Virus record (IMG/VR): IMGVR_UViG_3300031716_000018
Direction: 5' to 3' (one strand)
Length of the DNA: 45,103 nt
From: a virus
Shown here: piece by piece, positions 5,521 to 44,484 of the stretch
Position numbering within the stretch: position 1 is the stretch's first letter
Layout: every line of letters starts with the position of its first letter
Notes under the pieces: generated by a model
The model's database searches: none
The model's input: only the letters and a program-made list of their open reading frames with translations
What the model was told of the DNA's origin: nothing
Made by a program: the position numbers and the translations under genes

Positions 5521-5535
5521 GTCCGGGAACCGGAC
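5521..5535. repeat. Dispersed palindrome copy 1: GTCCGG-gaa-CCGGAC
   Basis: Read directly. Intergenic, 51 nt upstream of the 5586 start. A second small hairpin follows (ggccgcc/ggcggtc, 5552-5572). Confidence 0.9.
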
Positions 5536-5585
5536 AATGGAGGATCCAGGTGGCCGCCTCATCTAGGCGGTCGCCCGGGAATTAA

Positions 5586-5939
5586 ATGTCAATAGACCAA
5601 ATCATTGGTATCCTAGTGACTGTAGTCCTAGGCATGACTGGATGGGGGCTGTTCACCTTGGTTAAGTTGGATGCTAAGATGAGTGGCTTCCATCAGTGGC
5701 TACTCTCGCATGAGAAGCTTGATGATATTAGGATGGAGAACATCACTCAAAAGTTTGAAAACCTTAATGCCGAAATTAAGGAGCCTATCAAAGAGATTAA
5801 GGATCAGATGAAGGGGATGCAGGAGCGTATGTCAAGGATAGAAGAGCGTCATTCCAGAATATCTGAGTTTATCCGCCGTCAGGATGAAAGCACCAGGCGC
5901 CAGGATGAAAGAGAGCGTAAAAAAGATGTACCTGTATGA
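5586..5939 (+). CDS. membrane-anchored coiled-coil protein (117 aa)
   Basis: N-terminal TM segment IIGILVTVVLGMTGWGLFTLV followed by a charged coiled coil. Weak RBS. Confidence 0.5.
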   Translation: MSIDQIIGILVTVVLGMTGWGLFTLVKLDAKMSGFHQWLLSHEKLDDIRMENITQKFENLNAEIKEPIKEIKDQMKGMQERMSRIEERHSRISEFIRRQDESTRRQDERERKKDVPV

Positions 5940-6651
5940 AGCTAAAGACGTTGTTCGTGAGCACTTCGGCCGCTTAGGCCTGCCAACCTCCATCCTCTCA
6001 GTTGCCCTGACTGAGGGAAGGAAGGTGGTTGAGAAGGAGGGCAACTTTTGGTGGATGCGAACTACCGCTGACTTCTCAGCCGTTGTTGACTCCAATGAAT
6101 ACTCTATCCAGTCAGGCGGAGATATCGACATTTCCAACTTCAAGGATGGCCGTGCTCTCCAGCAAAAGCTCCCAACTGAAACAAGGTGGGGCCCAGTTGA
6201 ATTGGGAGTCCTTGATGAAGAAACTCTCAACCTTATGTACGACGACGACGATGAGGGCGAACCTGAGCAAGCCATCATAGATAATACAACCCTTAAGATC
6301 TATCCACCATCACCTCAATACGCTTATGACATGCGACTCTATGCCTATCAGTGGACTGACAATCCAACTGCTAACACCAGCACTGATGATCTGCTCAAGA
6401 ACTTCGGTATGGCGGTTGTGTATGGCGCCCTTATTTGGGGCTTTGAGATTGAGCTTAAGGATCTTCAGGGTGCTGCTTACTGGCGTAATCTTCTTGGCGG
6501 TAGTCCTTTCGGTCATGGTGGGGAGATTGCTAGAATCAAACGAGAAAACTTAAAGAGAGATTGGAAAGATAACATTGTCATGGTGCCTCATAAAGGGCCA
6601 GGAAGAATCTCAAAGAGATCCCTCAGCAACCTCCAGATTTATTGCAGATAA
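5926..6651 (+). CDS. hypothetical neck/tail-module protein (241 aa)
   Basis: The track ORF is 5884..6651. I chose the ATG at 5926 (MYLYEAKD), which gives a minimal overlap with 5586..5939. Confidence 0.5.
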   Translation: MYLYEAKDVVREHFGRLGLPTSILSVALTEGRKVVEKEGNFWWMRTTADFSAVVDSNEYSIQSGGDIDISNFKDGRALQQKLPTETRWGPVELGVLDEETLNLMYDDDDEGEPEQAIIDNTTLKIYPPSPQYAYDMRLYAYQWTDNPTANTSTDDLLKNFGMAVVYGALIWGFEIELKDLQGAAYWRNLLGGSPFGHGGEIARIKRENLKRDWKDNIVMVPHKGPGRISKRSLSNLQIYCR

Positions 6652-12504: not shown

Positions 12505-12725
12505 TGGACGAAGTTATCAAACCAACGCCTATTGAAGTTGACCAGCAAAGGCTTCAAAGTAACATCGAAGCTAACCTTGGAGCATTAACAGTTCAGTGCT
12601 GCATCAAAGATGCAATTATTGAGCAGCTCAAAGAGGAGAATCAGAAACTCAAGGACGTGTTAGCAAGGGGAATTCCCTTGACTAACCACCGTCCGGATTC
12701 CGGACAAATGAAAGTAAAGGAGTAA
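12504..12725 (+). CDS. small coiled-coil protein (73 aa)
   Basis: ATG overlaps the preceding stop. Heptad-like sequence. The 3' end contains palindrome copy 2. Confidence 0.5.
   Translation: MDEVIKPTPIEVDQQRLQSNIEANLGALTVQCCIKDAIIEQLKEENQKLKDVLARGIPLTNHRPDSGQMKVKE
12691..12705. repeat. Dispersed palindrome copy 2: GTCCGG-att-CCGGAC
   Basis: Read directly. Lies in the last codons of 12504..12725 (read as RPDSGQ), 25 nt upstream of the 12730 start. Confidence 0.9.
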
Positions 12726-19570: not shown

Positions 19571-19768
19571 TCATGATTCTCCCTCGTTTATGTCCGGAAT
19601 CCGGACAGCGCCCATCTGGCCTGGAATGAGAAACATAAAGAACTTACACTCTCCCCTTCTGCAGCTTATGGTTAGAACCTTTGCCATTCTTCCGTCGCTT
19701 GATTCCTGATGCCTTATTTCTGGTAGCATACCTACTCTTCTGCACCGCGGACATTGCTTTTCCTGCAT
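19571..19768 (-). CDS. possible small zinc-ribbon protein (65 aa), doubtful
   Basis: Internal ATG of track ORF 19571..19858 (MQEKQCPRC...SCRRGEC). Overlaps the low-complexity tail of 19644..20117 in another frame. Poor RBS. Confidence 0.25.
   Translation of the reverse strand: MQEKQCPRCRRVGMLPEIRHQESSDGRMAKVLTISCRRGECKFFMFLIPGQMGAVRIPDINEGES
19592..19606. repeat. Dispersed palindrome copy 3: GTCCGG-aat-CCGGAC (T...A flanks give a 17-bp palindrome)
   Basis: Read directly. Lies in the zone where the two transcription units converge. Confidence 0.9.
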
Positions 19769-22205: not shown

Positions 22206-24743
22206 TCATATCATGGAGTAGAGTCGCTCTTTAATCTTATCTTCCTTGAAGAAACCTTCCTTTGTTGCTCTATCAAGCCACGCTTCGTAGGTGGTATCTT
22301 CACCCACCTTGTAATTGAGCATCGCTCCCCAACTGTATCCCCATTGGAACTCACCTGGAATATGACAATCTCGACCATTGATAGTGAATCGAACCCTGTC
22401 TGCAGCTGCCTCAGCGCGCTCCATAAACTCTTGAGTTCTATTGGGAGGTCCACTTGCAAGGTAACTGTCGTGGCCTTGCTGATGGAACTTGACCCAAGGA
22501 AGATTATCCCAGAGCTCAAACATTGCTTCATTGAGAATGTCTGGGACAGTTGCTTGAGGTATGTAGGAGACCAGGTCACGCCAGATTTCGTCGGGAAGTT
22601 GACCCGTATGAGCAAGCGCCCCACAGGCCTTATACAGTTGGCGCACTCTACCCATAGGGGTAACAAGACACCCTTTAATGCAAGCCAGTTGTTTGATACT
22701 TCTGTGCCACTCGGATATTTCAGGTACTTGAATTCCGTAATTGTCATAAGTGTAACGTGCAAAATCTAATGGAATGTTAGCGGTGATTGCCAGCTTCTTA
22801 TAAGCCATCATGTAATTGTAGGCATGAACTATCCGCTTGCTTACATCATACTCAATTGAGTCTGACTCGATATCTTCAGGTCGCTTTCTAAATATTCCAC
22901 CTCCCACAACCTTGTGAATCTTGATAGGAGAAGCAAAAACGTTAAGAAGAAAGCGGCAATTAGACAGCCAAGCAACAATGCGAGCTTCAGCCTGGCTAAG
23001 GTCTCGCTGCCAGAAAACAGAACCTGGTGGGGGACAGTACATGAGACGCATGATTTTAGGGACTGTCTGCGGGCTTGAACCGCGCCATTTAGGGCTCTGG
23101 CTGAAGGACCATCTACCAGTTTTAGCAAAAGAAACGCGAGCCATGTAGCCAAGATAATGTTCGCCATCAGGATCAATATCAAAGTCAACATTGATATAGT
23201 TGCTCTCCTTCGTCCTCAAATGTCTGATCTGCAAGATGAGATTCAGCTGAGGTACATTAGGATGGCTTGCTCTGAGCTCTCGCAGCGTATCTTCATCTGT
23301 TGTGACAGAATCAGTTCCACGCTTGTGCTTGACAGGTAACCTAAGTTCTTCATACAATAAAGTAGCAACCGCCGGCGTAGACTTGACGTTGATCGGCCTT
23401 CCAACAAGTTGATCAAGCTCTGCTTGTCGGCGTTCTCGTTCAGTTTTAAGAAAAGCTGCCAGTCGTCCATGCCATTCTCTGTCGAGCCGTAGGCGATTCC
23501 GCTGCATCTCAAGACCGATCGGGAGAAATCGTCTAACGCGATTTTCGTAAGTTGATATGAGGCCTCCTTCTGTGAGGTCTCGTCGGACAGCCTGGCTGAC
23601 TTTAGGAGTTGAAACCATGTCTTTACAGTTGTAAGTGAAGGTCTTCTCATCCGGCTCCTTCTTGTTCCATGTCTTACCTTCATCCTTGTAATAGGGGTAG
23701 AAGGTGTAAAGCATCGTAGTGAAATCCAGGCCTTTATCAAACTCTGGATAAGCCACGTTCATCGCAGTCATTGGATCGAAGTTGATGCCGCCTGGCTCTA
23801 CTCCGAAATCGAGGAGATAGTCCAAGTCATAAAGAATATTCTGATTTTCAAGTAGTGGATTGTCTCGCATTGTTTCTGAGAGAGATCGCCAAATTGCACT
23901 TTCCTCCACCACACTCCATGCCGCGCCAGAACTTTTCTGAATCGGGACGCACATAGCGTACCTTGGCTTGGCATAAGATGATAGTCCGAAGCATCGGAGA
24001 GATGAGCCGACAGTTTCCACGTCGAGTGTCCAAGGTTGTCCTGACGTCCTAATGAAATCCAGTAATTCCAGAACTTCCCTGAAGGAGGGGTCAATAACGA
24101 AGACATCTGAAGTCTCCTTTTGGATAATATGTGGTGCAGTCGACTCAACTGCGATCCTCTTTAGCTGGCGAATGAGTATGTAATACCACTCCCAGTTATC
24201 CCTCATGATATACGCAGGGTGTAGGATTGGGATAACCTTGAGGCCTGGGATAGTGTCGCTGAGAAGGATACTGCCATGCCATTTGGTAATTCCTTCATGT
24301 CCTGTGCATAGCGTCTTAAGTGCTTCATTTCCTGCTGCAACCACAACATTCGGTCTATATTTGGACAGCTCCGCCACAAGCAAGTTACGCCACCACAGAA
24401 GCTCTTCAGTAGGCTGTTTTCTGCGCTTCGGGTCAAGATAGAAAACTCCAAAGTTATCTCCTGGGGGCCTCCTTTTAGAGACATTTGTGCGGTTAGCGAG
24501 AGCAAAGTCAATTCCAGAATTGGAGCAAGCCTTTCGTAGTAGGTTGCCTGACCCTCCCACAAAACCTTGAGGTTTGGATATTCGAGGAATTGAGCATCGC
24601 TTACATTTTCCTGCGTAAGGCATTCCGTATCCACATGAGGGACATTCATGCCAACTTACCTCCTGCCCGCCAGGGGCTTCACCCACAAAAGTTATTAAGG
24701 CGCCATCCCTAATTGTTGGCGGGCACTCAACAATAGGATTCAT
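22206..24743 (-). CDS. DNA polymerase, family A, with N-terminal UDG-like domain and 3'-5' exonuclease (845 aa)
   Basis: UDG family-4 motifs FVGEAPGGQE, FVGGSG, RRPPGDN, ILHPAYIMR. Exonuclease motifs LDVETVG, NILYDLDYL, YNCKD. Pol A motifs DLSQAEARIVAW, KRIVHAYNYMMAY, QGHDS. Confidence 0.9.
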   Translation of the reverse strand: MNPIVECPPTIRDGALITFVGEAPGGQEVSWHECPSCGYGMPYAGKCKRCSIPRISKPQGFVGGSGNLLRKACSNSGIDFALANRTNVSKRRPPGDNFGVFYLDPKRRKQPTEELLWWRNLLVAELSKYRPNVVVAAGNEALKTLCTGHEGITKWHGSILLSDTIPGLKVIPILHPAYIMRDNWEWYYILIRQLKRIAVESTAPHIIQKETSDVFVIDPSFREVLELLDFIRTSGQPWTLDVETVGSSLRCFGLSSYAKPRYAMCVPIQKSSGAAWSVVEESAIWRSLSETMRDNPLLENQNILYDLDYLLDFGVEPGGINFDPMTAMNVAYPEFDKGLDFTTMLYTFYPYYKDEGKTWNKKEPDEKTFTYNCKDMVSTPKVSQAVRRDLTEGGLISTYENRVRRFLPIGLEMQRNRLRLDREWHGRLAAFLKTERERRQAELDQLVGRPINVKSTPAVATLLYEELRLPVKHKRGTDSVTTDEDTLRELRASHPNVPQLNLILQIRHLRTKESNYINVDFDIDPDGEHYLGYMARVSFAKTGRWSFSQSPKWRGSSPQTVPKIMRLMYCPPPGSVFWQRDLSQAEARIVAWLSNCRFLLNVFASPIKIHKVVGGGIFRKRPEDIESDSIEYDVSKRIVHAYNYMMAYKKLAITANIPLDFARYTYDNYGIQVPEISEWHRSIKQLACIKGCLVTPMGRVRQLYKACGALAHTGQLPDEIWRDLVSYIPQATVPDILNEAMFELWDNLPWVKFHQQGHDSYLASGPPNRTQEFMERAEAAADRVRFTINGRDCHIPGEFQWGYSWGAMLNYKVGEDTTYEAWLDRATKEGFFKEDKIKERLYSMI

Positions 24744-26155
24744 TGATCGTCATCCTCAGAGCCGCCCAAGGGATCGTACTTAGAGGCTTCTTGAGGCGCC
24801 GGTTCGCTCTCAACAGTGCCAATGAGTTTTGTAAGTCGCTCGACAATTCCGGCGTGATAGGCCTTGTCCTTTTCACACAGTAGGAAATTACGCCCCGTCT
24901 GAATCGCAGCTTCTCCCAATGATCCTGAACCGGCAAAGAAGTCTGCAACAGTTTCTCCAGGCGCTGTTGAAGTTTCAATGAGCTGCCTAAGTAAGGATAC
25001 CGGCTTCTCGACAGCGTGTACTTTTCGCGCAGTCGGAACAGGATCGTGGCTGAGGACGTTTGACTGTCCCTGCCGAAGCAAGGCACGGTTACCTTTACGA
25101 CAGAAGAAGCATGCTTCGTAGCCAGAACCCCACCGACTGTCTGGGTGATTAACCTGGCCAGGTCCCGGCTTGACCCACACCAGTGGGATAGGTTCAACTG
25201 TGAATCCAACGTCTCTGAGCATGCTGAAGACTTTGTGATATTGCTTGATGTCGAAGAAGAAGTAGGCATGAGTATTGTCCTGTAAGAGGCGGAAAGCCTC
25301 CTTAGCCATCATCCATGTGAGATCCATTATGTCATAGGTATCATCATCATAGATCTCTGGATGAGGCGATCCTTTCTTAGTTTCACCAACGTGCAGGTTG
25401 ATGCCATAAGGGGGATCAGTGATGACGCAATGCAGGCAGCCATCATTCCATCCCTTAACAATTTGTAAGCAATCACCCAACTTGACCTTGTAAATGATTG
25501 AGTCGACCTCATCAGATTGGATGGCGCTCTTTGCCTTTGCTTTTAGCTCGCTGGCTTTTTGAGTAAGGTCAGCGCGCCGCATCAACAATCTTAGTTTGTT
25601 TTGAGCTTGTGTTTTGTTCTTAGATTCAGCAAGCTCAGGAAAGACCTCGATAGCCTCAGCCAGGCGAACGTCTTCCCAGAACTCCGTCTTTGACTCACCA
25701 ACATGGTCAGCCACATCCCTAATGCCATCACCATACTTCTTCCGGCGGATTTCATAGATTCGTTTCTTTGCACTAACCTCTTCCTGATAGGTGAGATTCT
25801 CACGAAGGAGGTTTTCATCTAGCTCAATCTCCTCCTGCTCCAAGCGATCAGTGACATCATCCCTGAAGATGGCACTTATCTCTGTACGCCGTATTTTAGC
25901 GTGGGCTAGATAGCGACGATAGCCTGCAACCAACTGATATTCACATCTCTGCGGCGCGTCCGGAAACCGGACACGATCAACTGGGCAGACCACAATTGGC
26001 TCTATCAAACCATGCTGAGCAATTGAAGTTGCCAACTCAGCCAACTTTCCATCGTTAATCCTTTGTCTTTGTCGATCTGCAGGTATCAAAACTGATGTTA
26101 ATGGAATCAGTTTTACATTATGAGTTATTATTCTCTCTTCAACAGCCTCTACCAT
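24740..26155 (-). CDS. ParB-like N-terminal domain fused to an N6/N4 DNA methyltransferase (471 aa)
   Basis: ParB/Srx block GLIEPIVV...LVAGYRRYLA. Methyltransferase motif IV ITDPPYG comes before motif I VADFFAGSGSLGEAA, with HAVEKPVSLL in between. GAGGAGG RBS. Confidence 0.9.
   Translation of the reverse strand: MVEAVEERIITHNVKLIPLTSVLIPADRQRQRINDGKLAELATSIAQHGLIEPIVVCPVDRVRFPDAPQRCEYQLVAGYRRYLAHAKIRRTEISAIFRDDVTDRLEQEEIELDENLLRENLTYQEEVSAKKRIYEIRRKKYGDGIRDVADHVGESKTEFWEDVRLAEAIEVFPELAESKNKTQAQNKLRLLMRRADLTQKASELKAKAKSAIQSDEVDSIIYKVKLGDCLQIVKGWNDGCLHCVITDPPYGINLHVGETKKGSPHPEIYDDDTYDIMDLTWMMAKEAFRLLQDNTHAYFFFDIKQYHKVFSMLRDVGFTVEPIPLVWVKPGPGQVNHPDSRWGSGYEACFFCRKGNRALLRQGQSNVLSHDPVPTARKVHAVEKPVSLLRQLIETSTAPGETVADFFAGSGSLGEAAIQTGRNFLLCEKDKAYHAGIVERLTKLIGTVESEPAPQEASKYDPLGGSEDDDQ
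25958..25972. repeat. Dispersed palindrome copy 4: GTCCGG-aaa-CCGGAC
   Basis: Read directly. Lies inside the ParB-domain coding part of 24740..26155 (read as VRFPD on the minus strand). Confidence 0.9.
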
Positions 26156-29774: not shown

Positions 29775-30121
29775 ATCAATCCAGCTCCTTGAAGTTCTAA
29801 GATGAGTTGCCAATCAGGTTTGCCAGTTGCTCTGAGTTTCTGGCATATCTCAGTGGCTAGCCCAAATCCCTCCAATGTCTGAGGAGGTGGTTTATTATCC
29901 TTCACACGTGACTTAGTCCTTGGCCGTCCTGGCTTTTTAGGGAGCTTGAATCCTTCATCATCCTGTTCCTCGAGAACTTTCTTTGTCCGTCCTAACGCGC
30001 GCTCAATAGTTCGACGTTGCTGATCTGCGGCTACTAGAGCCTGGAGCTCGGTATCATCCATCTCACATGCCATCTTCTTACCTAACTTGTGTAAGAGGGA
30101 TGAGCCCTGAGGACCAATCAT
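29771..30121 (-). CDS. AT-hook containing protein (116 aa)
   Basis: KKPGRPRTK matches the GRP-core AT-hook. Start is coupled (ATGA) to the RHH gene. Confidence 0.5.
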   Translation of the reverse strand: MIGPQGSSLLHKLGKKMACEMDDTELQALVAADQQRRTIERALGRTKKVLEEQDDEGFKLPKKPGRPRTKSRVKDNKPPPQTLEGFGLATEICQKLRATGKPDWQLILELQGAGLI

Positions 30122-30303
30122 CAGCCTAAATCCTCCTCTGTTGATGGAGGGAGGTCAGTTATTGAAATTAGATATTTAATGATTAAGCGGCGAACGAGCT
30201 TGCTTAAATCTCCGTGATCTGGGCACTCTCGCTTGAGACGGTTATAGACAGCATCGGGAAGGACAATGCGAACGCTCCTCTGTCCATTCTTAAGTTGACT
30301 CAT
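30121..30303 (-). CDS. ribbon-helix-helix (CopG/Arc-like) DNA-binding protein (60 aa)
   Basis: RSVRIVLPDAVYNRLKRECPDHGDLSKLVRRLIIKYL fits a strand-helix-helix layout. I chose the ATG at 30303; the track starts at a GTG (30306). Confidence 0.5.
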   Translation of the reverse strand: MSQLKNGQRSVRIVLPDAVYNRLKRECPDHGDLSKLVRRLIIKYLISITDLPPSTEEDLG

Positions 30304-30334
30304 CACATCTCACATCACTCACAGGGGAAAGATA

Positions 30335-31506: not shown

Positions 31507-31529
31507 CCCATCTCCTCCTTTGGTGGGGT

Positions 31530-31544
31530 GTCCGGTTATCGGAC
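31530..31544. repeat. Dispersed palindrome copy 5: GTCCGG-tta-TCGGAC (one arm mismatch)
   Basis: Read directly. Intergenic, 24 nt upstream of the 31506 start. The 17-mer tgtccggttatcggaca is the exact reverse complement of copy 6. Confidence 0.85.
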
Positions 31545-31553
31545 AACGCACGA

Positions 31554-32713: not shown

Positions 32714-32715
32714 GA

Positions 32716-32868: not shown

Positions 32869-32870
32869 CG

Positions 32871-33645: not shown

Positions 33646-33664
33646 CTATCCTCCTAGTTGTCAA

Positions 33665-34927: not shown

Positions 34928-34933
34928 TTCATC

Positions 34934-35107
34934 CTACTTATTCATCTCGTACCATTCCAAGATGGCTTCTTTGGCTACGGTTTCTAGCCGTTGTGAAGTC
35001 ACTGGCGTGAGGTCACCCCTCTTGACTTGTGAGAGCATCTTAGCGACACGTTCCCAGAAGTCCTGGAGAGCCTCCTGAGCAATATCATTCAGTTCTTTTT
35101 CATCCAT
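34934..35107 (-). CDS. hypothetical helical protein (57 aa), below the track length cut-off
   Basis: My own translation: MDEKELNDIAQEALQDFWERVAKMLSQVKRGDLTPVTSQRLETVAKEAILEWYEMNK. ATGA overlap with the upstream stop. Confidence 0.4.
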   Translation of the reverse strand: MDEKELNDIAQEALQDFWERVAKMLSQVKRGDLTPVTSQRLETVAKEAILEWYEMNK

Positions 35108-35295
35108 CATGAATCACTTCCTTTCTTTTCTACATTGCGAACTATTATAGTTTCAAAATTGTCCAACTTGTCAAAGAGCCTCCTTGTGTTCTCACAACAT
35201 TGAAGTTTAGCATCACGATAATTGTGAGTCTTTTTGAAGACCTTCCAAGCTCCCACAAGTTCTAATAGGCTGATAGCTTCTTCTGTAGTTGCCAT
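35107..35295 (-). CDS. hypothetical protein (62 aa)
   Basis: I chose the ATG at 35295 (MATTEEAISL), which overlaps the upstream stop. Confidence 0.45.
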   Translation of the reverse strand: MATTEEAISLLELVGAWKVFKKTHNYRDAKLQCCENTRRLFDKLDNFETIIVRNVEKKGSDS

Positions 35296-35495
35296 CAATA
35301 CTCCTTTATTACGATAGATCGCCAAACTTCCTCAGCTTCCTCAAAGATCCAGCCTGTATCTACAACTTCATCAAGTGGGATGTTATAGTGCTGAGCAACG
35401 ACATAATGAGCTAACGCCCAGCCAGGCTTGTCTGCTTGAGTTAGCCGATAAACTTGGCCATCTTTGGTCTTGATGAGCCAAACTTTCACCTTCAA
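35295..35495 (-). CDS. hypothetical protein (66 aa)
   Basis: The track start is a TTG 4 nt after AGGTGA. A GTG two codons in is an alternative start. Confidence 0.4.
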   Translation of the reverse strand: MKVKVWLIKTKDGQVYRLTQADKPGWALAHYVVAQHYNIPLDEVVDTGWIFEEAEEVWRSIVIKEY

Positions 35496-35672
35496 TTAAT
35501 CACCTGCTTTTCGCGGGCCTTTGCGAGTTGATTTGAGAGCTAGATCCTCTTCATAAAGTTCGAGGACCTTCTCTAGACATTGTCGGTCCTTTGATGGCAT
35601 ATCACCTTCCAAGAAGGAGTCAATAGCCATCATGACCAGGTCTAATTCAGGCTTCTCTAAATCCCTCATCAT
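35496..35672 (-). CDS. hypothetical protein (58 aa), below the track length cut-off
   Basis: My own translation: MMRDLEKPELDLVMMAIDSFLEGDMPSKDRQCLEKVLELYEEDLALKSTRKGPRKAGD. Starts directly after the 35673 stop. Confidence 0.4.
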   Translation of the reverse strand: MMRDLEKPELDLVMMAIDSFLEGDMPSKDRQCLEKVLELYEEDLALKSTRKGPRKAGD

Positions 35673-36158
35673 TCATCCTCCTATTTGTTTGAGTAGAGCA
35701 GCAAACTCTTGTGGATCAAGAGCTTTGAGCTGCCTAATATATTCCTTAGCATCATCTTCTGTTAGGGCCTTCTCCTTTCTTGGTTTTTTGCCAACTTGGG
35801 ATTTATCAGCATAAGGCAATTTTTCAATTTGAGGTGGTAATGACCAGTGACGTTGGCCAGACTTTGGCTTAGGGATATCACGTTCACCTTGCCGATGATC
35901 CGCTTGACCTTGAAGGAAATGCTCGATCTTTCGCTTTTCGAACTCGTTGGCAATGTAGTGATCGACGTCGTGCATCATAGGCTTTATATGCAGGTCGTAA
36001 AGCCGTAGATATTCTTCATATCGCTTTTTGAGCGATGGCTGAGCCGCATTGATCTCGTTGAGACGTTGGCGGGCCAGACGTTCTTTTTCCTCCATGATCA
36101 TGGAGATCATCCACGCGTAGGATTTGCGTTGACGATTTGCTTCTTTTACCGTAGGCAT
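35673..36158 (-). CDS. hypothetical basic helical protein (161 aa)
   Basis: AAGGAGGTG RBS. First gene downstream of the 36.2-36.4 kb repeat region. Confidence 0.55.
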   Translation of the reverse strand: MPTVKEANRQRKSYAWMISMIMEEKERLARQRLNEINAAQPSLKKRYEEYLRLYDLHIKPMMHDVDHYIANEFEKRKIEHFLQGQADHRQGERDIPKPKSGQRHWSLPPQIEKLPYADKSQVGKKPRKEKALTEDDAKEYIRQLKALDPQEFAALLKQIGG

Positions 36159-36324
36159 TGATTCTCACCTCCTTTCTGGTTACTGCGGCCCATTTTAGTG
36201 ATTTTGCACGCAGAATACCATGTGATAATGGACGCAATAAACGTGCCAGATGTCAAAAACTGCCAATAAATGCCAAAAACTTCCCAAAACTTCCATGAAT
36301 TACCTTAACTAAACGTAGTAAGGT

Positions 36325-36338
36325 GGACAATTTTGTCC
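36325..36338. repeat. Perfect 14-bp palindrome GGACAATTTTGTCC, copy 1 (operator candidate)
   Basis: Read directly. The 15-mer tggacaattttgtcc is identical in both copies. Confidence 0.85.
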
Positions 36339-36364
36339 GATTTGGTAGTATTTTGCAGAAGAAT

Positions 36365-36378
36365 GGACAATTTTGTCC
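36365..36378. repeat. Perfect 14-bp palindrome GGACAATTTTGTCC, copy 2 (operator candidate)
   Basis: Read directly. Exactly 40 bp from copy 1. Confidence 0.85.
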
Positions 36379-36427
36379 AATCCCACCTGCTGGTGGCATG
36401 TCTTCATGCAACTTCATGCAATCCCAC

Positions 36428-36739
36428 CTATTTTTCATCATCCTCAGGCTTTTTTGGAGGTGGGCCACCAAATAGCTTGTCGATTTGCTCCTGAGACATA
36501 CGCTTCTCGAGAAATTCACGGTCGGCATCATTTGAGTCGGCCGGCATGGTAGGAATGGTTGGAAGGGGCGCAATGAAGCCGTGATCTTTCATCTGCTCAG
36601 CACGTTCAACGGCCTTTGCTTTGCCAGAAGGTGTGAGACTGCGCCACTCAGCTTGGCAATTGGGTGAGCCACATGTTCTAATTTCACGACGGTAGATTTT
36701 AAGCTCAAAACAGATGGGACATAGTTTCCAGAAACCCAT
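36428..36739 (-). CDS. zinc-ribbon protein (103 aa)
   Basis: AAGGAGGA RBS. CPIC...CGSPNC. Confidence 0.55.
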   Translation of the reverse strand: MGFWKLCPICFELKIYRREIRTCGSPNCQAEWRSLTPSGKAKAVERAEQMKDHGFIAPLPTIPTMPADSNDADREFLEKRMSQEQIDKLFGGPPPKKPEDDEK

Positions 36740-36916
36740 TTGGATCCTCCTTTGAAAACAGCTAGCTTTAGTGGTTAGTAAGATCGGCGGACAAAAAAAA
36801 GCCGACCTCCATGTTTCCTCCTTTAGGGTGGCTATCTCAAAATCAGACAGCTCTCACTCACCCTCCACGAAGAACATGAAGATCGGCCTTTTAGTAGATG
36901 TTGGATCACCTCCATT

Positions 36917-37129
36917 TCATTCAAGCTGAAGCTCGACAGCTGAGCCGCACTCAGGACACGAAAATTCACAGATCAGGCGTCGGTCCTCATCGAGGAAGCG
37001 CTTGACCTCAGACATGTTAGCCATGCAAAGATCGTCTCCACCAAGATGCTCATTGGTAGCGTTCAACACCGTATTCTTCCAGGTGCGTAGTACGTGGCCC
37101 CGTGGAGCTTTGCAGATGATAGTAAACAC
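36917..37129 (-). CDS. small protein with C-terminal CPEC zinc knuckle (70 aa)
   Basis: The track start 37159 would translate the sequence AAGGAGGTGA. I treat that as the RBS and start at the GTG at 37129. Confidence 0.4.
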   Translation of the reverse strand: MFTIICKAPRGHVLRTWKNTVLNATNEHLGGDDLCMANMSEVKRFLDEDRRLICEFSCPECGSAVELQLE

Positions 37130-37164
37130 TAATGAATCACCTCCTTTCATCCCTGACATTGATG

Positions 37165-37344
37165 TTAGTTGACCAATAAGTGGAGGATGAAGTCCTCACA
37201 GCACACCTTGCAGCTGATGACGAGGCGCGCTGAGTATTCAGACTCCTCGGAAGTCGGGACGCGATGAAGGTTGAGAATTGTGTGCTCACAGACCTTCATT
37301 GGTTTGTGCTTCTCGAGGTAGTTGACTCGACAAGTGATCTCCAT
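37165..37344 (-). CDS. small Cys-rich protein (59 aa), below the track length cut-off
   Basis: My own translation: MEITCRVNYLEKHKPMKVCEHTILNLHRVPTSEESEYSARLVISCKVCCEDFILHLLVN. GAAAGGAGGTGA RBS. Confidence 0.4.
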   Translation of the reverse strand: MEITCRVNYLEKHKPMKVCEHTILNLHRVPTSEESEYSARLVISCKVCCEDFILHLLVN

Positions 37345-37368
37345 GAAATCACCTCCTTTCCCCTTTCC

Positions 37369-37397
37369 TTAACAACCTTCTTGAAGTGTGATATGAT
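37369..37397 (+). promoter_or_regulatory. Promoter-like module on the plus strand, antisense to the leftward operon: TTAACA-17-TATGAT with TGa
   Basis: ttaacaaccttcttgaagtgTGaTATGAT. Its 16-mer cttgaagtgtgatatg (37380-37395) is the inverted copy of 38127-38142. Confidence 0.3.
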
Positions 37398-37407
37398 AGG
37401 TTCGCCG

Positions 37408-37614
37408 TTAGCCCTCCAACTTCTCCAGGGTTGCGAGGGAGTATTTCTGACCTTTGCCAGTGCCAGTTTTGCAGCCATGATCTTTGAAACACTGAGTGCA
37501 GATTAGGCCCCACTGATATGATGAAGGGATCAAGCAATCATAGAACCACTGCTTGAAGGGCTGCCAGCATAACTGACAATTCTTGGGAGTTGAGCCCATC
37601 CATTTCTTAGCCAT
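37408..37614 (-). CDS. small Cys-rich protein (68 aa)
   Basis: CQLC...CTQC...C pattern, clean ORF. Confidence 0.5.
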   Translation of the reverse strand: MAKKWMGSTPKNCQLCWQPFKQWFYDCLIPSSYQWGLICTQCFKDHGCKTGTGKGQKYSLATLEKLEG

Positions 37615-37616
37615 GG

Positions 37617-37847
37617 TTAGACCTTTTTTGGTGCGTTAGTTGATGGGAGGCCTCGCTCCTCGAGTGATTCATCAACGATCTCATGGACTAATTCGTCACG
37701 CAATTTCTCGGCTTCATTGACCCATGAGCGAGGAAGGGTGATGCCTTCGTTATCTGAGCTGATTTGATCAGTTATCATTTGGAGGGCGACCTCCTCAATG
37801 ATACGTTGGCGGGCCTTGTACCAGAGCTTTTCACGATGATCTTTCAT
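37617..37847 (-). CDS. hypothetical helical protein (76 aa)
   Basis: I chose the ATG at 37847 (MKDHREKL), which follows AAAGGAG. The track start 37880 has no SD. Confidence 0.5.
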   Translation of the reverse strand: MKDHREKLWYKARQRIIEEVALQMITDQISSDNEGITLPRSWVNEAEKLRDELVHEIVDESLEERGLPSTNAPKKV

Positions 37848-37896
37848 CTTTTGATTCTCCTTTTGTGTGATAGTTAACATTTATCAGAACGGCAAT

Positions 37897-37911
37897 GTCC
37901 GATAACCGGAC
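37897..37911. repeat. Dispersed palindrome copy 6: GTCCGA-taa-CCGGAC (one arm mismatch)
   Basis: Read directly. Intergenic, 50 nt upstream of the 37847 start. Reverse complement of copy 5. Confidence 0.85.
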
Positions 37912-37936
37912 ACGATTTTCGCGCTCTCGCTCTCAC

Positions 37937-39193: not shown

Positions 39194-39222
39194 TTGACAT
39201 TAAGGCCGATCTATGATACATT
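39194..39222 (+). promoter_or_regulatory. Candidate rightward (late) promoter TTGACA-17-TACATT with TGa
   Basis: TTGACAttaaggccgatctaTGaTACATT. It would leave almost no leader before the ATG at 39233. A TATGAT 5 nt upstream makes the -10 assignment ambiguous. Confidence 0.35.
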
Positions 39223-39232: not shown

Positions 39233-39883
39233 ATGGAAAATCTCAACGCCTCCGATCCATTCCATCCTGACAATATGCCAGTCGCGGGGCACGAGCCCAA
39301 GACACAGGTTGTCCGGATCCCGGACAGCAACGAACTTGACAATCTCATTACTGATAATAACGCCCCCGCCCCTCAATTGGCCGAGGCTGAGAATGCCACT
39401 AAATACGGCGAGGGGCGATGGGAACCAGATGTCCTAAAGCCTCGTCATCGTGAGATTCTGAGGCGCGTTTTTGAGGGCTCATCCTACCAGGACATTGCCG
39501 ATGCTATGGGCATCCATAAGCAAACGGTCATGCTAGTTGCAACCTCCAAGCTCTTTCGAGAAGAGCTCGCAAAGATGGAATCTCGTGCTGACTATACCAT
39601 CGTCTCCCGTGCTGACTCTATGGCCAACGAAGCCTTAGATAAGATCAAAACTCTCATGAGATCATCTCGCTCTGAGTTCCTCCAGAAGCAATGTGCAGAG
39701 CGTATTTTGGATACTGCTGGCTATTCTAAGGTAGAAAGGAAAATCCTTGGAATCGTTACAGGTGAAGACGTCATACGAGAACTTAACAAGCGCAAACGCG
39801 AAGCCACCTCCATTGCAGGGGATGGTGGAGGACCAGCCCTACCTGAGATTGATTTGGGTGATGGGTCGGATATCTTGCCTTGA
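39233..39883 (+). CDS. HTH DNA-binding protein, small-terminase-like by position (216 aa)
   Basis: The track ORF starts at a TTG (39194). The first ATG is 39233. REILRRVFEGSSYQDIADAMGIHKQTV is a LuxR/sigma-region-4-type HTH. First gene before terL. Confidence 0.5.
   Translation: MENLNASDPFHPDNMPVAGHEPKTQVVRIPDSNELDNLITDNNAPAPQLAEAENATKYGEGRWEPDVLKPRHREILRRVFEGSSYQDIADAMGIHKQTVMLVATSKLFREELAKMESRADYTIVSRADSMANEALDKIKTLMRSSRSEFLQKQCAERILDTAGYSKVERKILGIVTGEDVIRELNKRKREATSIAGDGGGPALPEIDLGDGSDILP
39311..39325. repeat. Dispersed palindrome copy 7: GTCCGG-atc-CCGGAC
   Basis: Read directly. Lies inside 39233..39883 (read as VRIPD). Confidence 0.9.
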
Positions 39884-40103: not shown

Positions 40104-40862
40104 ATGGGTGGCTTAGCTGATATATTAGGGAAGCAGGACTACGAGAGGCATCAGGGCGTGATCAAACCAGCCCTCCGCCCCTCAGATCATCACCCTCAGT
40201 TTAAGGGCGTCCCTGAAACAGGGCGCTATGAGGATGGGATCAATAAGGCTGAACAGATCAGCCGTAACATGGAAACCTACTTCAATAATCCCTGGGCCAT
40301 GATTGAGGACGGCCATATCTGGACCTTAGATGAAGCTGACAAACTAAATCCCGTAAAGCCCTTCCCTGATACCAAGTGGAACAAATGGATAACTGAGCAA
40401 TGGCTCTCTCGTGATCTCATCTCCCTCTTCAAATCAAGGCGTATGATGATTTCCTGGCTCTTCATCTATCTCCATCTTTGGATGGTCTTATTCCTTGAGG
40501 GTCGATCTGTCTTCTTCGTCTCTGATAAGGAGGAGAAAAGTGACGAGCTCATTGACAGAGTTGAGTTCATCTACAATCACATACCTGATGACGTTATGCT
40601 TAAACCCGTTGCTAAGCGAACGTACTGCCACTTTGAAGTGCCAGGACTCAACAATTACATACTCGGTGTCGCACAAGGAGCTCGCCAGCTTGCTCAATAT
40701 ACAGCGTCAGCTCTTTTCTTTGATGAGTTCGCACACTGGGAACGAGCGCGAGAAACGTTTATGGCAGCTAAACCAACTATTGATGGTGGTGGAAAGGTAA
40801 CCCTCGTATCATCACCAAAGGAAGGATTCTTCAAAGAACTATGCTTCGATCAAGTCCGTTGA
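40104..40862 (+). CDS. terL: terminase large subunit, N-terminal ATPase fragment (252 aa)
   Basis: KSRRMMIS (Walker-A-like), LFFDEFAHW (Walker B), GKVTLVSSP (coupling motif). The ORF stops 15 codons after the coupling motif. Confidence 0.7.
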   Translation: MGGLADILGKQDYERHQGVIKPALRPSDHHPQFKGVPETGRYEDGINKAEQISRNMETYFNNPWAMIEDGHIWTLDEADKLNPVKPFPDTKWNKWITEQWLSRDLISLFKSRRMMISWLFIYLHLWMVLFLEGRSVFFVSDKEEKSDELIDRVEFIYNHIPDDVMLKPVAKRTYCHFEVPGLNNYILGVAQGARQLAQYTASALFFDEFAHWERARETFMAAKPTIDGGGKVTLVSSPKEGFFKELCFDQVR

Positions 40863-41300: not shown

Positions 41301-41306
41301 GATTCA

Positions 41307-42263
41307 ATGAAAATCACCTCCTTAGACCTTCCCTCATCTGTTGAGGCTCTTGGGACAGTCCGCGAGGAATTGCCTGAGGCTATCAACGTTGATGAGATAA
41401 TGACGGGCCTGAAATGTTGGGAGAACCCCATCAACAGGTTTTTCGTCATCCGCCTTCACAGAAGCGCTGATCCTAAGAAGCGGTTGAAGGAATGGGAGGA
41501 AAAGACTCGCGCCGGTATGGACACTGCCAACTGGTTGCGTGAGTACGAGCTAGTGTGGGAGGCTCTGAATGGCAGGGCCGTCTATCAGGATGAATGGAGT
41601 CACGATTTCCACGTCTCAAAGACCTCCTTGGGATGGAACCCTAACCTCGCCATCGGAAGGGGCTGGGACTTCGGACTCTATCCAGCTTGTATCTTCTGCC
41701 AGCTTTTCCCACACTCTCGTCTTATTGTGATTAGGGAATGTATTGGTGAGGACATCGATACCGAGAGGTTCATGTATGAAGTCGATCGCCTCAGCGCTGA
41801 ATGGTTTCCTAACGCTAGATTCGTTGAGTTCGTTGACCCTACAGGAAAGAATAGAGTTGGGACGGATGGCAGAACATATACTCAGCTCCTTGCCAGAAAA
41901 CCCCTTCGTGCGAAGAAGATATATCTTGGAGCTAACGCGCCTGTTGCTCGTCGAACTGCGGTCATCGACTTCCTTAAGGAGAATGTCAAAGGCCAACCGG
42001 CTCTCCTTGTTGATCCGTCGTGTGAGATGTTGGTCAAAGGCTTCAACGGAGGATACATGTACGCCTACCTCCAAGGAACCTTAAAGACCAAACCAGAGAA
42101 GAATATCTTCTCTCATATCCATGATGCCTTGCAATATCTCTGCTCAAAGGTTCGCACTGTTGATATGAAGGTCAACCTTGCCACGGTCAAGCCCGTCGAA
42201 CCAAGATTTGGCGGCCGTACTCCATCACCTATTCCTCAAGTGGAAGGAACATATGGCAGGTAA
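41307..42263 (+). CDS. terL: terminase large subunit, C-terminal fragment (ATPase lid plus RNase-H-like nuclease, 318 aa)
   Basis: FFVIRLH..ADP..EWEEKTRAG...WLREYELVW, then GWDFGLYPA, FVDPTGKN and HIHDALQYL, which are typical TerL nuclease landmarks. No SD before the ATG. Confidence 0.8.
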   Translation: MKITSLDLPSSVEALGTVREELPEAINVDEIMTGLKCWENPINRFFVIRLHRSADPKKRLKEWEEKTRAGMDTANWLREYELVWEALNGRAVYQDEWSHDFHVSKTSLGWNPNLAIGRGWDFGLYPACIFCQLFPHSRLIVIRECIGEDIDTERFMYEVDRLSAEWFPNARFVEFVDPTGKNRVGTDGRTYTQLLARKPLRAKKIYLGANAPVARRTAVIDFLKENVKGQPALLVDPSCEMLVKGFNGGYMYAYLQGTLKTKPEKNIFSHIHDALQYLCSKVRTVDMKVNLATVKPVEPRFGGRTPSPIPQVEGTYGR

Positions 42264-44484
42264 ACCAGCCAACTATCACGAAGCAAATCCTCGAGGAGGC
42301 TACGTTAATGGCAAGGTCAAGGATGACTCTAAGCCATGGGATTCTGCGGCTTTGGGATTCTCCGATAGGGAAAGTGGCGTCCCGATCTACAACTCCGAAG
42401 ATATTGCTGATGCTCTCAGTGAGTATAATCTCAAGCGCTTTTTTAGTGCTATGTTGGAGGAAGCTAAGAAACTCGCCGCACCTAGAGTGGAGGTACGTCG
42501 AAGGTGTTGGGCGCTTTATAATAACGAGTACGACTGGTCAGACAAAGCCTGGTGGCAGCACCGAGCTCCTATACCAAAAGTTAGAGCAGCCGTTGACAAG
42601 GCAGTAGCCCTCTTCCGAAAAACCCTTCTGAGGATGAACCCATTCTACGGCATTCAAGCTGAAAGTAGGATGGGCAGAACTAAGGGAAGATTCACCATGT
42701 TGCTGACGGACTATCACTTTGATCAGTCCGCCGTCATCGAGTCCCTAGTTGATGCATTCAAAGTCGGTCTGATAACCTCTGAATCCATCCTCAAAATCTG
42801 GTGGATGCGCACAAGGGATTTCAGACCAGAACTCAACATCACTCAGAAGGAAGAATATACATATGAGTTTGGTGTGCCAACAGGGAAGTCTGTCAAGGAG
42901 ATTCGTGAAGCATCCTTGGCAAAATATGAGAAGGGAAAGTTAGGCGTTGCCTGCGTCAATCCTGATAACTATTGGATTGTTCCTGGAACTCGTAATAGAA
43001 TGTCAATTGAGCGCGATCAAGCTACTTTGAATGAAATTGAGTCTTTGGCAGATGAGGGCATTTATGACAAGGAGGCAGTCACGCGCCTCCGTGACAAGCT
43101 CTCCTCTGCCACTACGATTCAAGAAGATACTACGCCGCAGATCACTAAAGAAGGCGCGCCGGCCACCACGACGTATCTCCGTCCAGTAGATTTGTGGCAC
43201 TTCTGGGGGGACATCTACGATGTACAAGGAAAACTGGTTAAGTGTGATGCGTCGTTTACTCTCGCAAATCAGGATATCCTCATCCGTAAGGCCAGGGATA
43301 ACCCTTTTTTCCATAAGGATCCACCATATGTTCTTGGAACTCCTTATAAGGTACCCTTCTCGACCTATCATCGCGGAATGGTTGAGGACGTTATGGAGTT
43401 GGCGACCGCCATCACCGAGATGGCTAATCTCATTGCAGATGGCGCGCTTTACGATGCCCTCAAAGCGTTCTCAGTGGATATTGACCAGCTCGATGATCCC
43501 TCTGAGGCAAGGCAGGGTTTATATCCTGGCAAAGTGTTTATACGTAAGTCAGGCTCTGCAGCTTCTCCAAATGAACAACTTGTTCAGACAGTCGATGTTG
43601 GCAAAGTTCCTCAAGAAGCGATGAGCATGATAAGTTTGTTTGAGAAGTACTACGCTGAGGGCTCTTACATTAATGAGTGGGTCGCCGGCCAGGGCGGGAA
43701 GGGAGATCGAACACTTGGCGAAGTCAACATTAAAACTCAATCTGCACTCGAAGGACTTGATGAGTCAGCCAGAAATCTTGAAGTCACTCTCATCGAGCCA
43801 ACCCTCGACATGGCGACAAGGGTTATCTATCAGTTTCACGAGGACTATACGATCCCTCGTCTTATGGATAACTATCCTAATATCGCCGTTATGCTTCAAG
43901 GTATGCAGCCTGCCGAGCGTTATTCAGTCATGGTTGGGGACTTCTCATTCAAGATGAGGGGCTTAAGCCTGATGATTGAACGCCAGCAACGAATCGGGGA
44001 GCTCAAGGAGATTCTCCAACTGCTGAGTTACTTGCCAGGATTTGTTGAGCGTCTAAATCCAGACGCTACGTTGGAGGAAGTTCTCATGCCTTTAGGTTGG
44101 GATCCTTCCAAACTCCTAATAAATCCAGCACAGGCGGCAGTAACTACACCGCAGCCCGGCGCGGTGCCCCAGCCTCCCATGATCCCGCCAGGCGCCCCTC
44201 CTGGTATGGAGCAGAGAAATGCTATGGAGGGAGCTCGCATGGGAGGAGCCAGAAATAATCCAGTTGCGCGAGGAGGCAATCCACAGTATTCACGGCCCGT
44301 CAACAATGGCCCTATGAGGCCTCCTATGAGAGGTGGCGCACCAATGCCTCCACCACGTCCGGTTACCGGACAGCCGCCAATGCAAGGTGGCCCCTTACAA
44401 CAACAGCTCTTAGGAGCTCTTAGATTTATGATGGCCAGGAATCAAGGGCGTAACTTGTTACAGCCTCCACCGCAACAGCAATGA
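42253..44484 (+). CDS. portal protein (743 aa) with Pro/Gly/Met/Gln-rich C-terminal tail
   Basis: I chose the ATG at 42253 (MAGKPANY), which overlaps the terL stop. The track ORF starts at 42178. Called from size and position directly after terL. Confidence 0.6.
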   Translation: MAGKPANYHEANPRGGYVNGKVKDDSKPWDSAALGFSDRESGVPIYNSEDIADALSEYNLKRFFSAMLEEAKKLAAPRVEVRRRCWALYNNEYDWSDKAWWQHRAPIPKVRAAVDKAVALFRKTLLRMNPFYGIQAESRMGRTKGRFTMLLTDYHFDQSAVIESLVDAFKVGLITSESILKIWWMRTRDFRPELNITQKEEYTYEFGVPTGKSVKEIREASLAKYEKGKLGVACVNPDNYWIVPGTRNRMSIERDQATLNEIESLADEGIYDKEAVTRLRDKLSSATTIQEDTTPQITKEGAPATTTYLRPVDLWHFWGDIYDVQGKLVKCDASFTLANQDILIRKARDNPFFHKDPPYVLGTPYKVPFSTYHRGMVEDVMELATAITEMANLIADGALYDALKAFSVDIDQLDDPSEARQGLYPGKVFIRKSGSAASPNEQLVQTVDVGKVPQEAMSMISLFEKYYAEGSYINEWVAGQGGKGDRTLGEVNIKTQSALEGLDESARNLEVTLIEPTLDMATRVIYQFHEDYTIPRLMDNYPNIAVMLQGMQPAERYSVMVGDFSFKMRGLSLMIERQQRIGELKEILQLLSYLPGFVERLNPDATLEEVLMPLGWDPSKLLINPAQAAVTTPQPGAVPQPPMIPPGAPPGMEQRNAMEGARMGGARNNPVARGGNPQYSRPVNNGPMRPPMRGGAPMPPPRPVTGQPPMQGGPLQQQLLGALRFMMARNQGRNLLQPPPQQQ
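44357..44371. repeat. Dispersed palindrome copy 8: GTCCGG-tta-CCGGAC
   Basis: Read directly. Lies inside the portal C-terminal tail (read as RPVTGQ). Confidence 0.9.

Follow-up and report, generated by a model that had tools for sequence, protein, structure and literature searches.

Introduction

Dyad-symmetric repeats dispersed over a phage genome have been described in the Cluster O mycobacteriophages, which carry 31–36 copies of 5′-TGTTCGGNNNCCGAACA (TGTTCGG-N3-CCGAACA), mostly with AAA or TTT at the centre and about one third of them within coding sequence (PMC4351075). These phages are non-temperate and encode a ParB-like protein; Corndog, a cos phage, belongs to them, and its motif is not found in the genome of its host. 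Cresawn et al. (2015) predicted that the repeat is bound by a dimeric protein and assigned no function to it (PMC4351075), and a report of 2024 notes the repeat descriptively only (PMC11600133). In this study, a palindrome of the same layout, GTCCGG-N3-CCGGAC, was analysed in the IMG/VR virus record IMGVR_UViG_3300031716_000018, a stretch of 45,103 nucleotides (referred to here as the window) that holds a complete tailed-phage genome of 47% GC without a close relative in GenBank. The coordinates given are those of the whole stretch; L-numbers (L117, L124 etc.) are labels of the IMG/VR loci or contigs compared, L143 being OP947158.

ParB, Noc and KorB bind 13–16-bp palindromes that are dispersed over a replicon. 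Fusions of ParB to an N6/N4-methyltransferase (MTase) were found to be common in phages in a survey of 2025, in which no function was assigned to them and no DNA sites were described (PMC12704722), and other non-canonical ParB-like proteins of mobile elements are being given new roles (PMC13229309, PMC13370423). The window encodes such a fusion, g30. The palindromes reported below thus belong to a repeat class that is known but unexplained; what is new is a variant in an unrelated phage together with a testable candidate for the protein that binds it.

Results

Eight copies of the palindrome are evenly spaced round the genome

A pattern scan located six mismatch-free copies of GTCCGGNNNCCGGAC (GTCCGG-N3-CCGGAC), at 5521, 12691, 19592, 25958, 39311 and 44357, and two copies with one mismatch, at 31530 (GTCCGGTTATCGGAC) and 37897 (GTCCGATAACCGGAC), as listed in the initial annotation of the window. 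The latter two, flanks included, are exact reverse-complement 17-mers, also as annotated. None of 100 dinucleotide-preserving shuffles of the genome yielded any copy, and when up to 2 mismatches were allowed, 10 matches were found against 0.67 expected by chance. The GTCCGG arms are unvaried in six of the eight copies and have a single innermost mismatch in the other two. The annotation had described a 17-bp palindrome, TGTCCGG...CCGGACA, common to all copies. Its trailing A is indeed present in 8/8, but the base 5′ of GTCCGG is T in only four and C in the other four, so that the full 17-bp palindrome is seen in 4/8 copies, with the outer T/A on at least one side in all eight. The spacers, in order GAA, ATT, AAT, AAA, TTA, TAA, ATC and TTA, are A/T-rich and agree with those annotated.

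Positions 44977–45103 are an exact 127-bp direct repeat of positions 1–127; the assembly is therefore circular, of 44,976 bp, and features near its ends are contiguous. The gaps between copies round the circle are 7170, 6901, 6366, 5572, 6367, 1414, 5046 and 6140 bp. Spacing that had been called fairly even is so by calculation: for 8 random points, the probability of a maximum gap no larger than observed is ~1e-4 and that of a standard deviation no larger than observed ~1.3e-3.

Three to four of the eight copies lie within coding sequence, the rest being intergenic or at gene ends. Those at 5521, 12691, 31530 and 37897 are 23–50 nt upstream of a Shine-Dalgarno (SD) sequence and start codon, in line with the limit of about 50 nt first given for these four. 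Copy 1 (cGTCCGG-GAA-CCGGACa, 5520..5536) is intergenic, 6 nt past the stop codon of g10 and upstream of a 117-aa open reading frame (ORF), with syntenic counterparts in L124 (12421) and L127 (10488). Copy 2 (12690..12706, ATT spacer) occupies the final codons of g19, read as RPDSGQ, 24 nt upstream of the g20 ATG; syntenic copies are found in L119 (11874), L120 (20284) and L138 (6664). The junction at which the two transcription units converge, as annotated, holds copy 3 (19591..19607, AAT spacer), which precedes g24, the last small ORF of the leftward operon; it has a syntenic copy in L117 (15081) and one at the analogous place in a distant relative, Desulfofustis phage LS06-2018-MD01 (15474). 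Copy 4 (25957..25973, AAA spacer) was correctly placed inside the ParB_N-coding part of the ParB-MTase gene g30, where it encodes VRFPD (residue 62), and counterparts inside the gene occur in L117 (8763), L243 (314) and L244 (9536).

Copy 5 (31529..31545), with its innermost-arm mismatch, separates the early small-ORF block from the recombination/replication block, 23 nt upstream of a minus-strand SD and ATG, and is syntenic with sites in L117 (3708) and L244 (3590). Its reverse complement, copy 6 (37896..37912, one mismatch), occupies the stretch from which the leftward early block and the rightward block diverge and has syntenic counterparts in L128 (4967), L124 (80) and L127 (110). Copy 7 (39310..39326, ATC spacer) falls in the hypervariable N-terminal segment of g66, encoding VRIPD (residue 27 from the ATG at 39233). 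The syntenic copies of L118, L128 and L124 have other reading frames, and that of L120 is 90 nt upstream. Copy 8 (44356..44372, TTA spacer) is in a C-terminal extension of the portal gene (RPVTGQ, residue 727); in L126 and L127, whose portal gene is shorter, the corresponding copies follow it as intergenic sites, and in L124 and L120 they lie between g2 and g4. The reading frames quoted at the outset for the coding copies (VR[IF]PD and RP[DV][ST]GQ) are right.

A weaker relative that had been noted at 1346, CTCCGGCCGCCGGAG (CTCCGG-CCG-CCGGAG, 1346..1360), does exist 28 nt into g4. It carries 2 symmetric changes, and ~0.67 such matches are expected by chance. Since L124 and L120 have a genuine GTCCGG palindrome immediately upstream of g4, the element may, with some uncertainty, be a decayed syntenic copy.

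The ~117-aa ORF just past copy 1 (5586–5939, plus strand) keeps its position and size in L124 and L127; in simple ORF calls it overlaps the start of an adaptor-like gene (5884–6651).

The selected object is the DNA and not the encoded peptide

Relatives were collected by a scan of IMG/VR with the 17-mer itself, which gave four true relatives, and by protein-based scans, which added more. In these phages, sharing 40–80% amino-acid identity, the palindrome recurs at matching places in the gene order, and at least eight relatives have syntenic copies. The shared places are the divergent early region, the 5′ end of g66, the portal end or a position upstream of the scaffold/capsid genes, the interval between g10 and g12, a position upstream of g20, the convergent junction, the ParB part of g30, and the interval between the early and replication blocks. 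The sequence flanking the sites is unconserved among the relatives. The segment of g66 that holds its copy is translated in differing frames across relatives, and the portal copy is intergenic where the portal gene is shorter. In g30, VRFPD lies inside a 10-residue insertion found only in this ParB-MTase subfamily; the in-gene copy is retained with intact arms in L117, L243 and L244, although L243 is only 51% identical in the ParB part. The one-mismatch variants across the family are all at the innermost arm base. Because positions are kept while flanks, frames and coding status change, the conclusion that the DNA itself is the selected object and not the encoded peptide, already drawn in the initial annotation from the differing frames, is well supported.

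In L244 (9359–10823), the ParB_N part (76 aa, palindrome included) and the methyltransferase are called as separate ORFs. The split could be due to a frameshift or assembly error, or the fusion could be naturally split.

The architecture is kept while the arms change between lineages

A recount in Corndog gave 34 copies of its repeat. The high-GC IMG/VR contigs with several dispersed TGTCCGG palindromes are Corndog relatives (~77% nucleotide identity), one of which has 13 copies in 21 kb; other Corndog relatives carry TGTTGC-N5-GCAACA instead, in 17–21 copies per 21 kb. The arms therefore differ by symmetric change within the Corndog lineage, and the architecture stays while they change. The TGTCCGG-N3-CCGGACA of the Corndog-like metagenomic phages is identical to the motif of the window. 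The likeness to the Cluster O repeats extends to the 7-3-7 layout, the outer TGT...ACA, the unvaried arms, the A/T-rich spacer without orientation, the mixture of intergenic and coding copies, and the retention of positions in relatives; the phages of both kinds are non-temperate and have a ParB-like protein. They differ in that the window has 8 evenly spaced copies against 31–36 concentrated in one arm, a GC content of 47% against 65%, and a ParB-like protein fused to a methyltransferase. Apart from the proteins with a ParB N-domain together with a helix-turn-helix (HTH), no protein common to the family of the window and the Corndog-likes was found by phmmer or family profiles, and the window is thus a parallel instance and not a member of the Corndog lineage.

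In the Desulfofustis phage (34% GC), nine intergenic copies of ttGCTAT-GTCCCAA-N-TTGGGAC-ATAGCaa are 5–8 kb apart over most of the genome (even-spacing P = 0.006), at the analogous places upstream of terS, upstream of the portal gene and before the last gene of the replication operon. A closer g66 locus, L152, carries six copies of a new variant, RTCCGAT-W-ATCGGAY. No repeated palindrome was found in the distant GenBank relatives MW202554, MW202489, Mel-JY34, Kuura, MW202455 and Gordonia phage Dogfish.

In the Desulfofustis-phage-like clade, three sub-lineages (L143, L175 and L183) have a common outer GCTAy...rTAGC frame around different palindrome cores. This frame suggests that the recognition element has two parts, of which the outer one is conserved and the inner one differs by lineage.

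Dispersed palindromes are associated with ParB-module loci

g30 (24740..26155, minus strand) encodes a ParB N-terminal (CTPase-fold) domain and an HTH fused to a beta-class N6/N4 DNA methyltransferase (Pfam ParB_N and N6_N4_Mtase). Its residues 15–208 align with Thermus Spo0J 24–200 (E 6.5e-10) and also with Noc, and the GxRR and ENxxR boxes are invariant in the alignment of the ParB module. In Corndog, residues 30–162 of gp90 align with Spo0J 46–176, which cover the ParB N-domain and HTH. The ParB family is the sole DNA-binding family detected in all three palindrome-bearing groups. Among the three motif types of the Corndog lineage, the recognition helix of gp90 varies with the motif and is identical in two contigs of the same motif; the Cro-like HTH protein gp76 varies too, gp90 doing so somewhat more consistently.

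The arrangement resembles the ParB systems (chromosomal parS, NBS of Noc, OB of KorB on RK2, sopC of N15), in which a protein with a ParB N-domain and HTH is found with dispersed identical 13–17-bp palindromes on the same replicon. One site is inside the ParB-coding gene, as in B. subtilis spo0J, and the Corndog version agrees with parS in its outer bases (TGTTC...GAACA). It is unlike ParB/parS in that the dyad is of odd length with a 3-bp spacer, the methyltransferase replaces the C-terminal dimerisation domain, and the phage is lytic and has no need for partition. Pfam and PHROG scans of the ORFs detected no ParA/CbiA-type ATPase, integrase, repressor or RNA polymerase, and the arrangement does not qualify as a partition system.

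For a wider survey, 80 IMG/VR loci were fetched via an alignment of the ParB module, and the 63 loci of at least 9 kb were scored for dispersed copies of a single palindrome with 6-bp arms per locus. Three or more copies were found in 9 of the 63 and two copies in 16. Shuffled versions of the same 63 loci gave none with three or more and 4 with two, and among 56 control viral loci not selected for ParB the numbers were 0 and 12. The difference between ParB and control loci is significant by Fisher's exact test (P = 0.003; 0.006 without the phage's own family). The palindromes are mostly intergenic, 3–9 kb apart and often extended to 25–31-bp dyads, and the motifs are lineage-specific (TGTTCA-N5-TGAACA, GTTACAT-N-ATGTAAC, TTGCAT-N-ATGCAA, TTCAAA-N-TTTGAA and GTCCGG-N3-CCGGAC). 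The only cultured phage of the TGTTCA/GTTACAT lineages found in GenBank is the Desulfofustis phage.

Nearly all the ParB-module proteins inspected are ParB-MTase fusions of 445–480 aa like g30, and their grouping by recognition helix follows the arm sequence: SKxExWED with GTCCGG, SKSSISRD with GTCCCA, SPAGVxQD with TGTTCA and SPANLTRD with GTTACAT. The Desulfofustis protein (L143) belongs to the SPA clade by a linker insertion, yet has S-K as in the GTCC-associated g30 group. The sites are real, non-random, evenly spaced and specific to the lineage; selection acts on them as DNA, and their association with ParB-module (ParB-MTase) loci is statistical.

Several observations weigh against taking the ParB module as the reader of these sites. 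The control loci were shorter (11.8 vs 15.9 kb), 38 of the 63 ParB loci have no palindrome within ~16 kb, and the positive loci represent about five lineages, several of them in one Desulfofustis-phage-like clade, so that the association may partly reflect shared ancestry. L194 has TGTTCA arms with a different helix and is a counter-example to the helix rule; likewise, the motif of the TGTCCGG-type Corndog relative is identical to that of the window, but the recognition helix of its ParB-like gp90 is unrelated to that of g30. MW202489 and Microcystis phage Mel-JY34 encode an HTH-bearing ParB-MTase beside PolA and have no repeated palindrome. As these two palindrome-free distant relatives possess a g30-like protein, a ParB-MTase alone is insufficient. 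g30 itself is without the ParB C-terminal dimerisation domain and has Y for E in the GERR box, which makes clamp-like behaviour speculative. The sister-lineage palindromes, being 25–31 bp and often abutting an SD, would suit the role of an RNA hairpin too. Finally, a rival protein, g66, co-occurs perfectly with the palindromes among 7 compared genomes.

The palindromes are probably read as duplex DNA

AAA and TTT are equivalent in duplex DNA and very different as RNA loops. When the spacers were read on the sense strand, A:T counts were 46:31 in the family and 131:99 in the Corndog-likes, and Corndog has AAA 17 times and TTT 13 times; the spacer is thus without meaningful orientation to transcription. 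The arms are unvaried while the spacer varies among copies. Duplex recognition by a symmetric dimer would best explain this pattern, rather than an oriented or an RNA element. The confinement of the family's one-mismatch variants to the innermost arm base points the same way, as do the iteron-like tandem arrays that the palindrome forms beside winged-helix initiator genes in unrelated contigs (see below).

Alternative explanations

The initial annotation proposed that the palindromes are bound by a dimeric protein and named the ParB-MTase as a candidate; after the comparative tests this proposal is the best supported, but g66 co-occurs with the palindromes equally well. g66 (39233..39883, plus strand), encoded just upstream of terL, is an HTH protein of the LuxR/sigma-70-region-4 type whose C-terminal part is helical and terS-like. 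The palindromes may be operators for such a dimeric regulator of the phage, g66 in the first place or possibly a small ribbon-helix-helix (RHH) or unrecognised protein, exerting global transcription control from one site per gene module, by repression or as a roadblock at module boundaries, or packaging marks if g66 is a true small terminase; an explanation along these lines is possible, though we think it doubtful. g66 is a serious rival because, among the genomes compared, a g66-like HTH protein is confined to the palindrome-bearing ones, unlike the g30-like ParB-MTase. Homologues are present in both palindrome-bearing groups (the family of the window and the Desulfofustis phage) and in 0/5 palindrome-free distant relatives, and the gene holds a palindrome, or has one just upstream of it, in the window, L118, L128, L124, L120 and the Desulfofustis phage. 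Corndog has a site 20 nt into gp31, the gene before terL, but gp31 is not an HTH protein. HTH dimers of the LuxR/GerE type typically bind 7-2-7-like dyads. Both the g66 helix and the motif are changed in L152; in L124, however, the recognition helix is very different (LSRVAVCLVVTS vs IHKQTVMLVATS) and the motif unchanged. L126 and L127 have no site at g66, and six more distant g66-like loci have no palindrome with three or more copies. The sites do bracket functional modules (early, recombination, replication, packaging, head, neck/tail, internal proteins), which speaks for a regulator, yet a site may shift by up to ~1.5 kb from one relative to another (portal end vs g2/g4), unlike promoter-linked operators, and a regulator does not predict even spacing. 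A scan for sigma-70-type promoters was at shuffled expectation, and its matches did not coincide with the sites, with one exception near 39311. A packaging role fits poorly with the preference of TerS rings for direct and not inverted repeats. It fits poorly also with Corndog being a cos phage (PMC4351075). The many copies of a short site in largely short intergenic gaps recall the stoperators of Cluster A phages and phiC31 CIR; stoperators, however, lack symmetry, follow the direction of transcription and are found in temperate phages that have an immunity repressor, and the sites here are symmetric and orientation-free in a phage in which no repressor or integrase was found by the above scans. 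The ori iterons of lambda type, bound by O or winged-helix proteins, are similar in being dyads of ~17–19 bp that are A/T-rich at the centre and have arms that change together with the binding protein among related phages. They are unlike the single, dispersed sites of the window, in which no HTH_36/O-like initiator was detected. A minor candidate, g38 (30121..30306, minus strand), is small and RHH-like, with a weak Pfam RHH_5 match and 67% conservation in L117; its DNA-reading strand residues differ from those of the RHH protein beside a tandem array of the palindrome in L045.

An RNA or single-stranded DNA hairpin between modules, often 5′ of a ribosome-binding site and acting in processing, stability or translational control through a sequence-specific factor, is unlikely. 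An SD and ORF start follow within 70 nt at 16 of 28 family sites (control 30%), about 10 sites are only 13–26 nt upstream of the start, and those of Corndog and L133 cluster tightly at 19–33 nt. This closeness keeps an RNA role alive, yet it is expected of any 17-bp element in short intergenic gaps. The sister-lineage elements are long perfect dyads (13–15-bp stems) beside an SD. Hairpins of −8 to −15 kcal/mol are predicted, with modest folding z-scores (−1.3 to −4.0), and arm changes between lineages always keep pairing, although this is inherent to any palindrome. The arms, however, are invariant without compensatory drift; the loop, the usual feature for protein recognition, is variable and occurs in both orientations; and the mismatches that one-arm variants produce on the transcribed strand are A·C, G·A or C·C, without a preference for G·U. 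In addition, 3–4 of the 8 copies, and about one third of those of Corndog (PMC4351075), are inside coding sequence, and no Rfam family matched. Intrinsic terminators were considered and rejected: no copy is followed by a T-run that would give a U-tract, and a terminator scan was at or below shuffled expectation, picking only 5521, weakly and on the minus strand. Hairpin promoters for an N4-type (virion) RNA polymerase, suggested initially, are the least probable of all. The stem of 6–7 bp and loop of 3 nt match the N4 early promoters, which have a 5–7-bp stem and a 3-nt loop, and many sites are at 13–26 nt from start codons. The scans of the ORFs, however, revealed no RNA polymerase domain, and the spacer is untied to transcription, which argues against an oriented promoter, as this would need a fixed orientation; moreover, sites are found at the convergent junction and inside genes and are not confined to early genes. 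The sole large unannotated protein, g23 (1142 aa), gave no polymerase match against PDB sequences or by fold search, which is an absence of support and not proof, because its all-helical predicted structure is of low confidence (pLDDT 48). A role as a target of restriction-modification or of another host factor, or an origin as repeats acquired passively from the host, would account for CCGG in each arm and for the DNA methyltransferase encoded by the phage, but is very improbable. CCGG occurs 58 times against 62 expected and other 4-mers are unremarkable, so that restriction avoidance or methylation, also suggested initially, was rejected. The conserved unit has 12–14 specified bp and is much longer than a Type II target, arms of sister lineages are without CCGG, and arms differ between close relatives. 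The hosts would have to span actinobacteria (65% GC) to that of the 34%-GC Desulfofustis phage, the host genome of Corndog lacks the phage's motif, as mentioned, and single-copy matches in IMG/VR are roughly at chance (~200 expected, an estimate). It is similarly hard to credit that the sites are short recombination linkers promoting modular exchange. They do coincide with module boundaries, genes for a Sak4-like ATPase and a PD-(D/E)XK exonuclease are present, and one Cluster O indel is flanked by sites, but the authors report few rearrangements at them (PMC4351075). Identity to relatives shows no stepwise change at the sites of the window, 17 bp is very short, and dyad symmetry and even spacing are left unexplained.

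A possible role for g30 at the palindromes

Of the explanations considered, we tentatively favour the palindromes being duplex-DNA recognition sites for a phage-encoded symmetric protein, most probably the ParB(HTH) module of g30, which would use them as parS-like docking sites. A phage-encoded reader is suggested because the arm sequence differs between closely related phages, and the even spacing (in the window and in the Desulfofustis phage alike) fits a function in coverage. We infer g30 as the binder, its spreading or sliding, and the consequence by analogy with the ParB proteins. In such a mechanism, a g30 dimer would read the two GTCCGG arms with its two HTH motifs, and the A/T-rich 3-bp centre would go unread but favour the DNA geometry needed. 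The site would serve as a docking or loading point from which the protein then occupies neighbouring DNA, as do ParB, Noc and KorB at parS, NBS and OB. One site per ~6 kb would bring the whole 45-kb chromosome within reach, and the methyltransferase or a ParB coat could act preferentially on phage DNA. Arms and recognition helix would co-evolve to give a private address for each phage lineage.

It is conceivable, though rather improbable, that ParB-MTase fusions in general are 'self-addressed' modifiers, in which a palindrome every ~5–7 kb loads a ParB-type clamp and the tethered methyltransferase modifies its own DNA rapidly and selectively. This would explain the abundance of phage ParB-MTase fusions and also the Cluster O repeats, where the ParB-like protein is not an MTase. 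The assignment of the sites to g30 links two puzzles, the dyad repeats of Cluster O (2015, no binder known) and the ParB-MTase fusions of phages (catalogued in 2025, no DNA target). If the link is causal, a large and uncharacterised family of phage proteins would gain its cognate DNA sites, and a way would be suggested in which a virus might limit marking or coating to its own DNA. Otherwise the sites would still be a conserved signal, evenly spaced and organising the genome, for which models of this phage group must account.

Organisation of the phage genome

The genome has a rightward structural block (1–19.2 kb), a leftward block (37.9 to 19.6 kb) and a rightward packaging block with the HTH terS-like g66, terL and an SU10-type portal. 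The leftward block contains many small Cys-rich early ORFs, an RHH-like protein, the PD-(D/E)XK exonuclease, an AAA_24 ATPase, g30 with its ParB_N and N6/N4-methyltransferase parts, a family-A polymerase with a uracil-DNA-glycosylase (UDG)-like N-domain and a DUF3987 primase/helicase.

The strongest sigma-70-like promoter match of its region (39194–39222, TTGACA-17-TACATT preceded by TG) stops 10 nt short of the g66 ATG (39233), ~90 nt upstream of the palindrome at 39311. The terminase large subunit is seemingly split into 40104–40862 (ATPase-like, weak Terminase_6N match) and a 318-aa ORF at 41307–42263, with ~450 bp holding small ORFs between them; this could reflect an intron, an intein, an inserted element or mis-assembly. 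The family-A polymerase (22206–24743, minus strand) has an N-terminal domain of the uracil-DNA-glycosylase superfamily. The PolA-UDG fusion and the synteny of ParB-MTase, PolA and DUF3987 primase are found also in Microcystis phage Mel-JY34, Desulfofustis phage LS06 and Manatee Spring contigs. The region 31554–37880 (minus strand) is dense in small Cys-rich (zinc-ribbon-like) ORFs without a family match, several of which are kept in L117 and L128. An ORF for a secreted fn3-domain protein (29439–29813, minus strand) lies in the replication block and is found right after terL in relatives (L118, 2601–2933; L128, 7647–7973; L124, 3044–3226), the gene having moved between modules.

The same palindrome in unrelated contigs

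Unrelated IMG/VR contigs carry exact TGTCCGG-N3-CCGGACA as tandem arrays of 4–7 copies with periods of 21–27 bp (~two helical turns), in L045 (6317–6460), L063 (6474–6543), L024 (3351–3440) and L002 (7097–7230). The arrays lie in or beside genes for HTH_36/DnaD_N-type winged-helix initiator-like proteins or near an RHH gene, and are probably replication-origin or centromere iterons. In six high-GC contigs (L020, L033, L076, L032, L047 and L113), two copies of the palindrome are exactly 176 bp apart with conserved flanks (CGTGTCCGG...), an arrangement that looks like a paired operator of another phage group.

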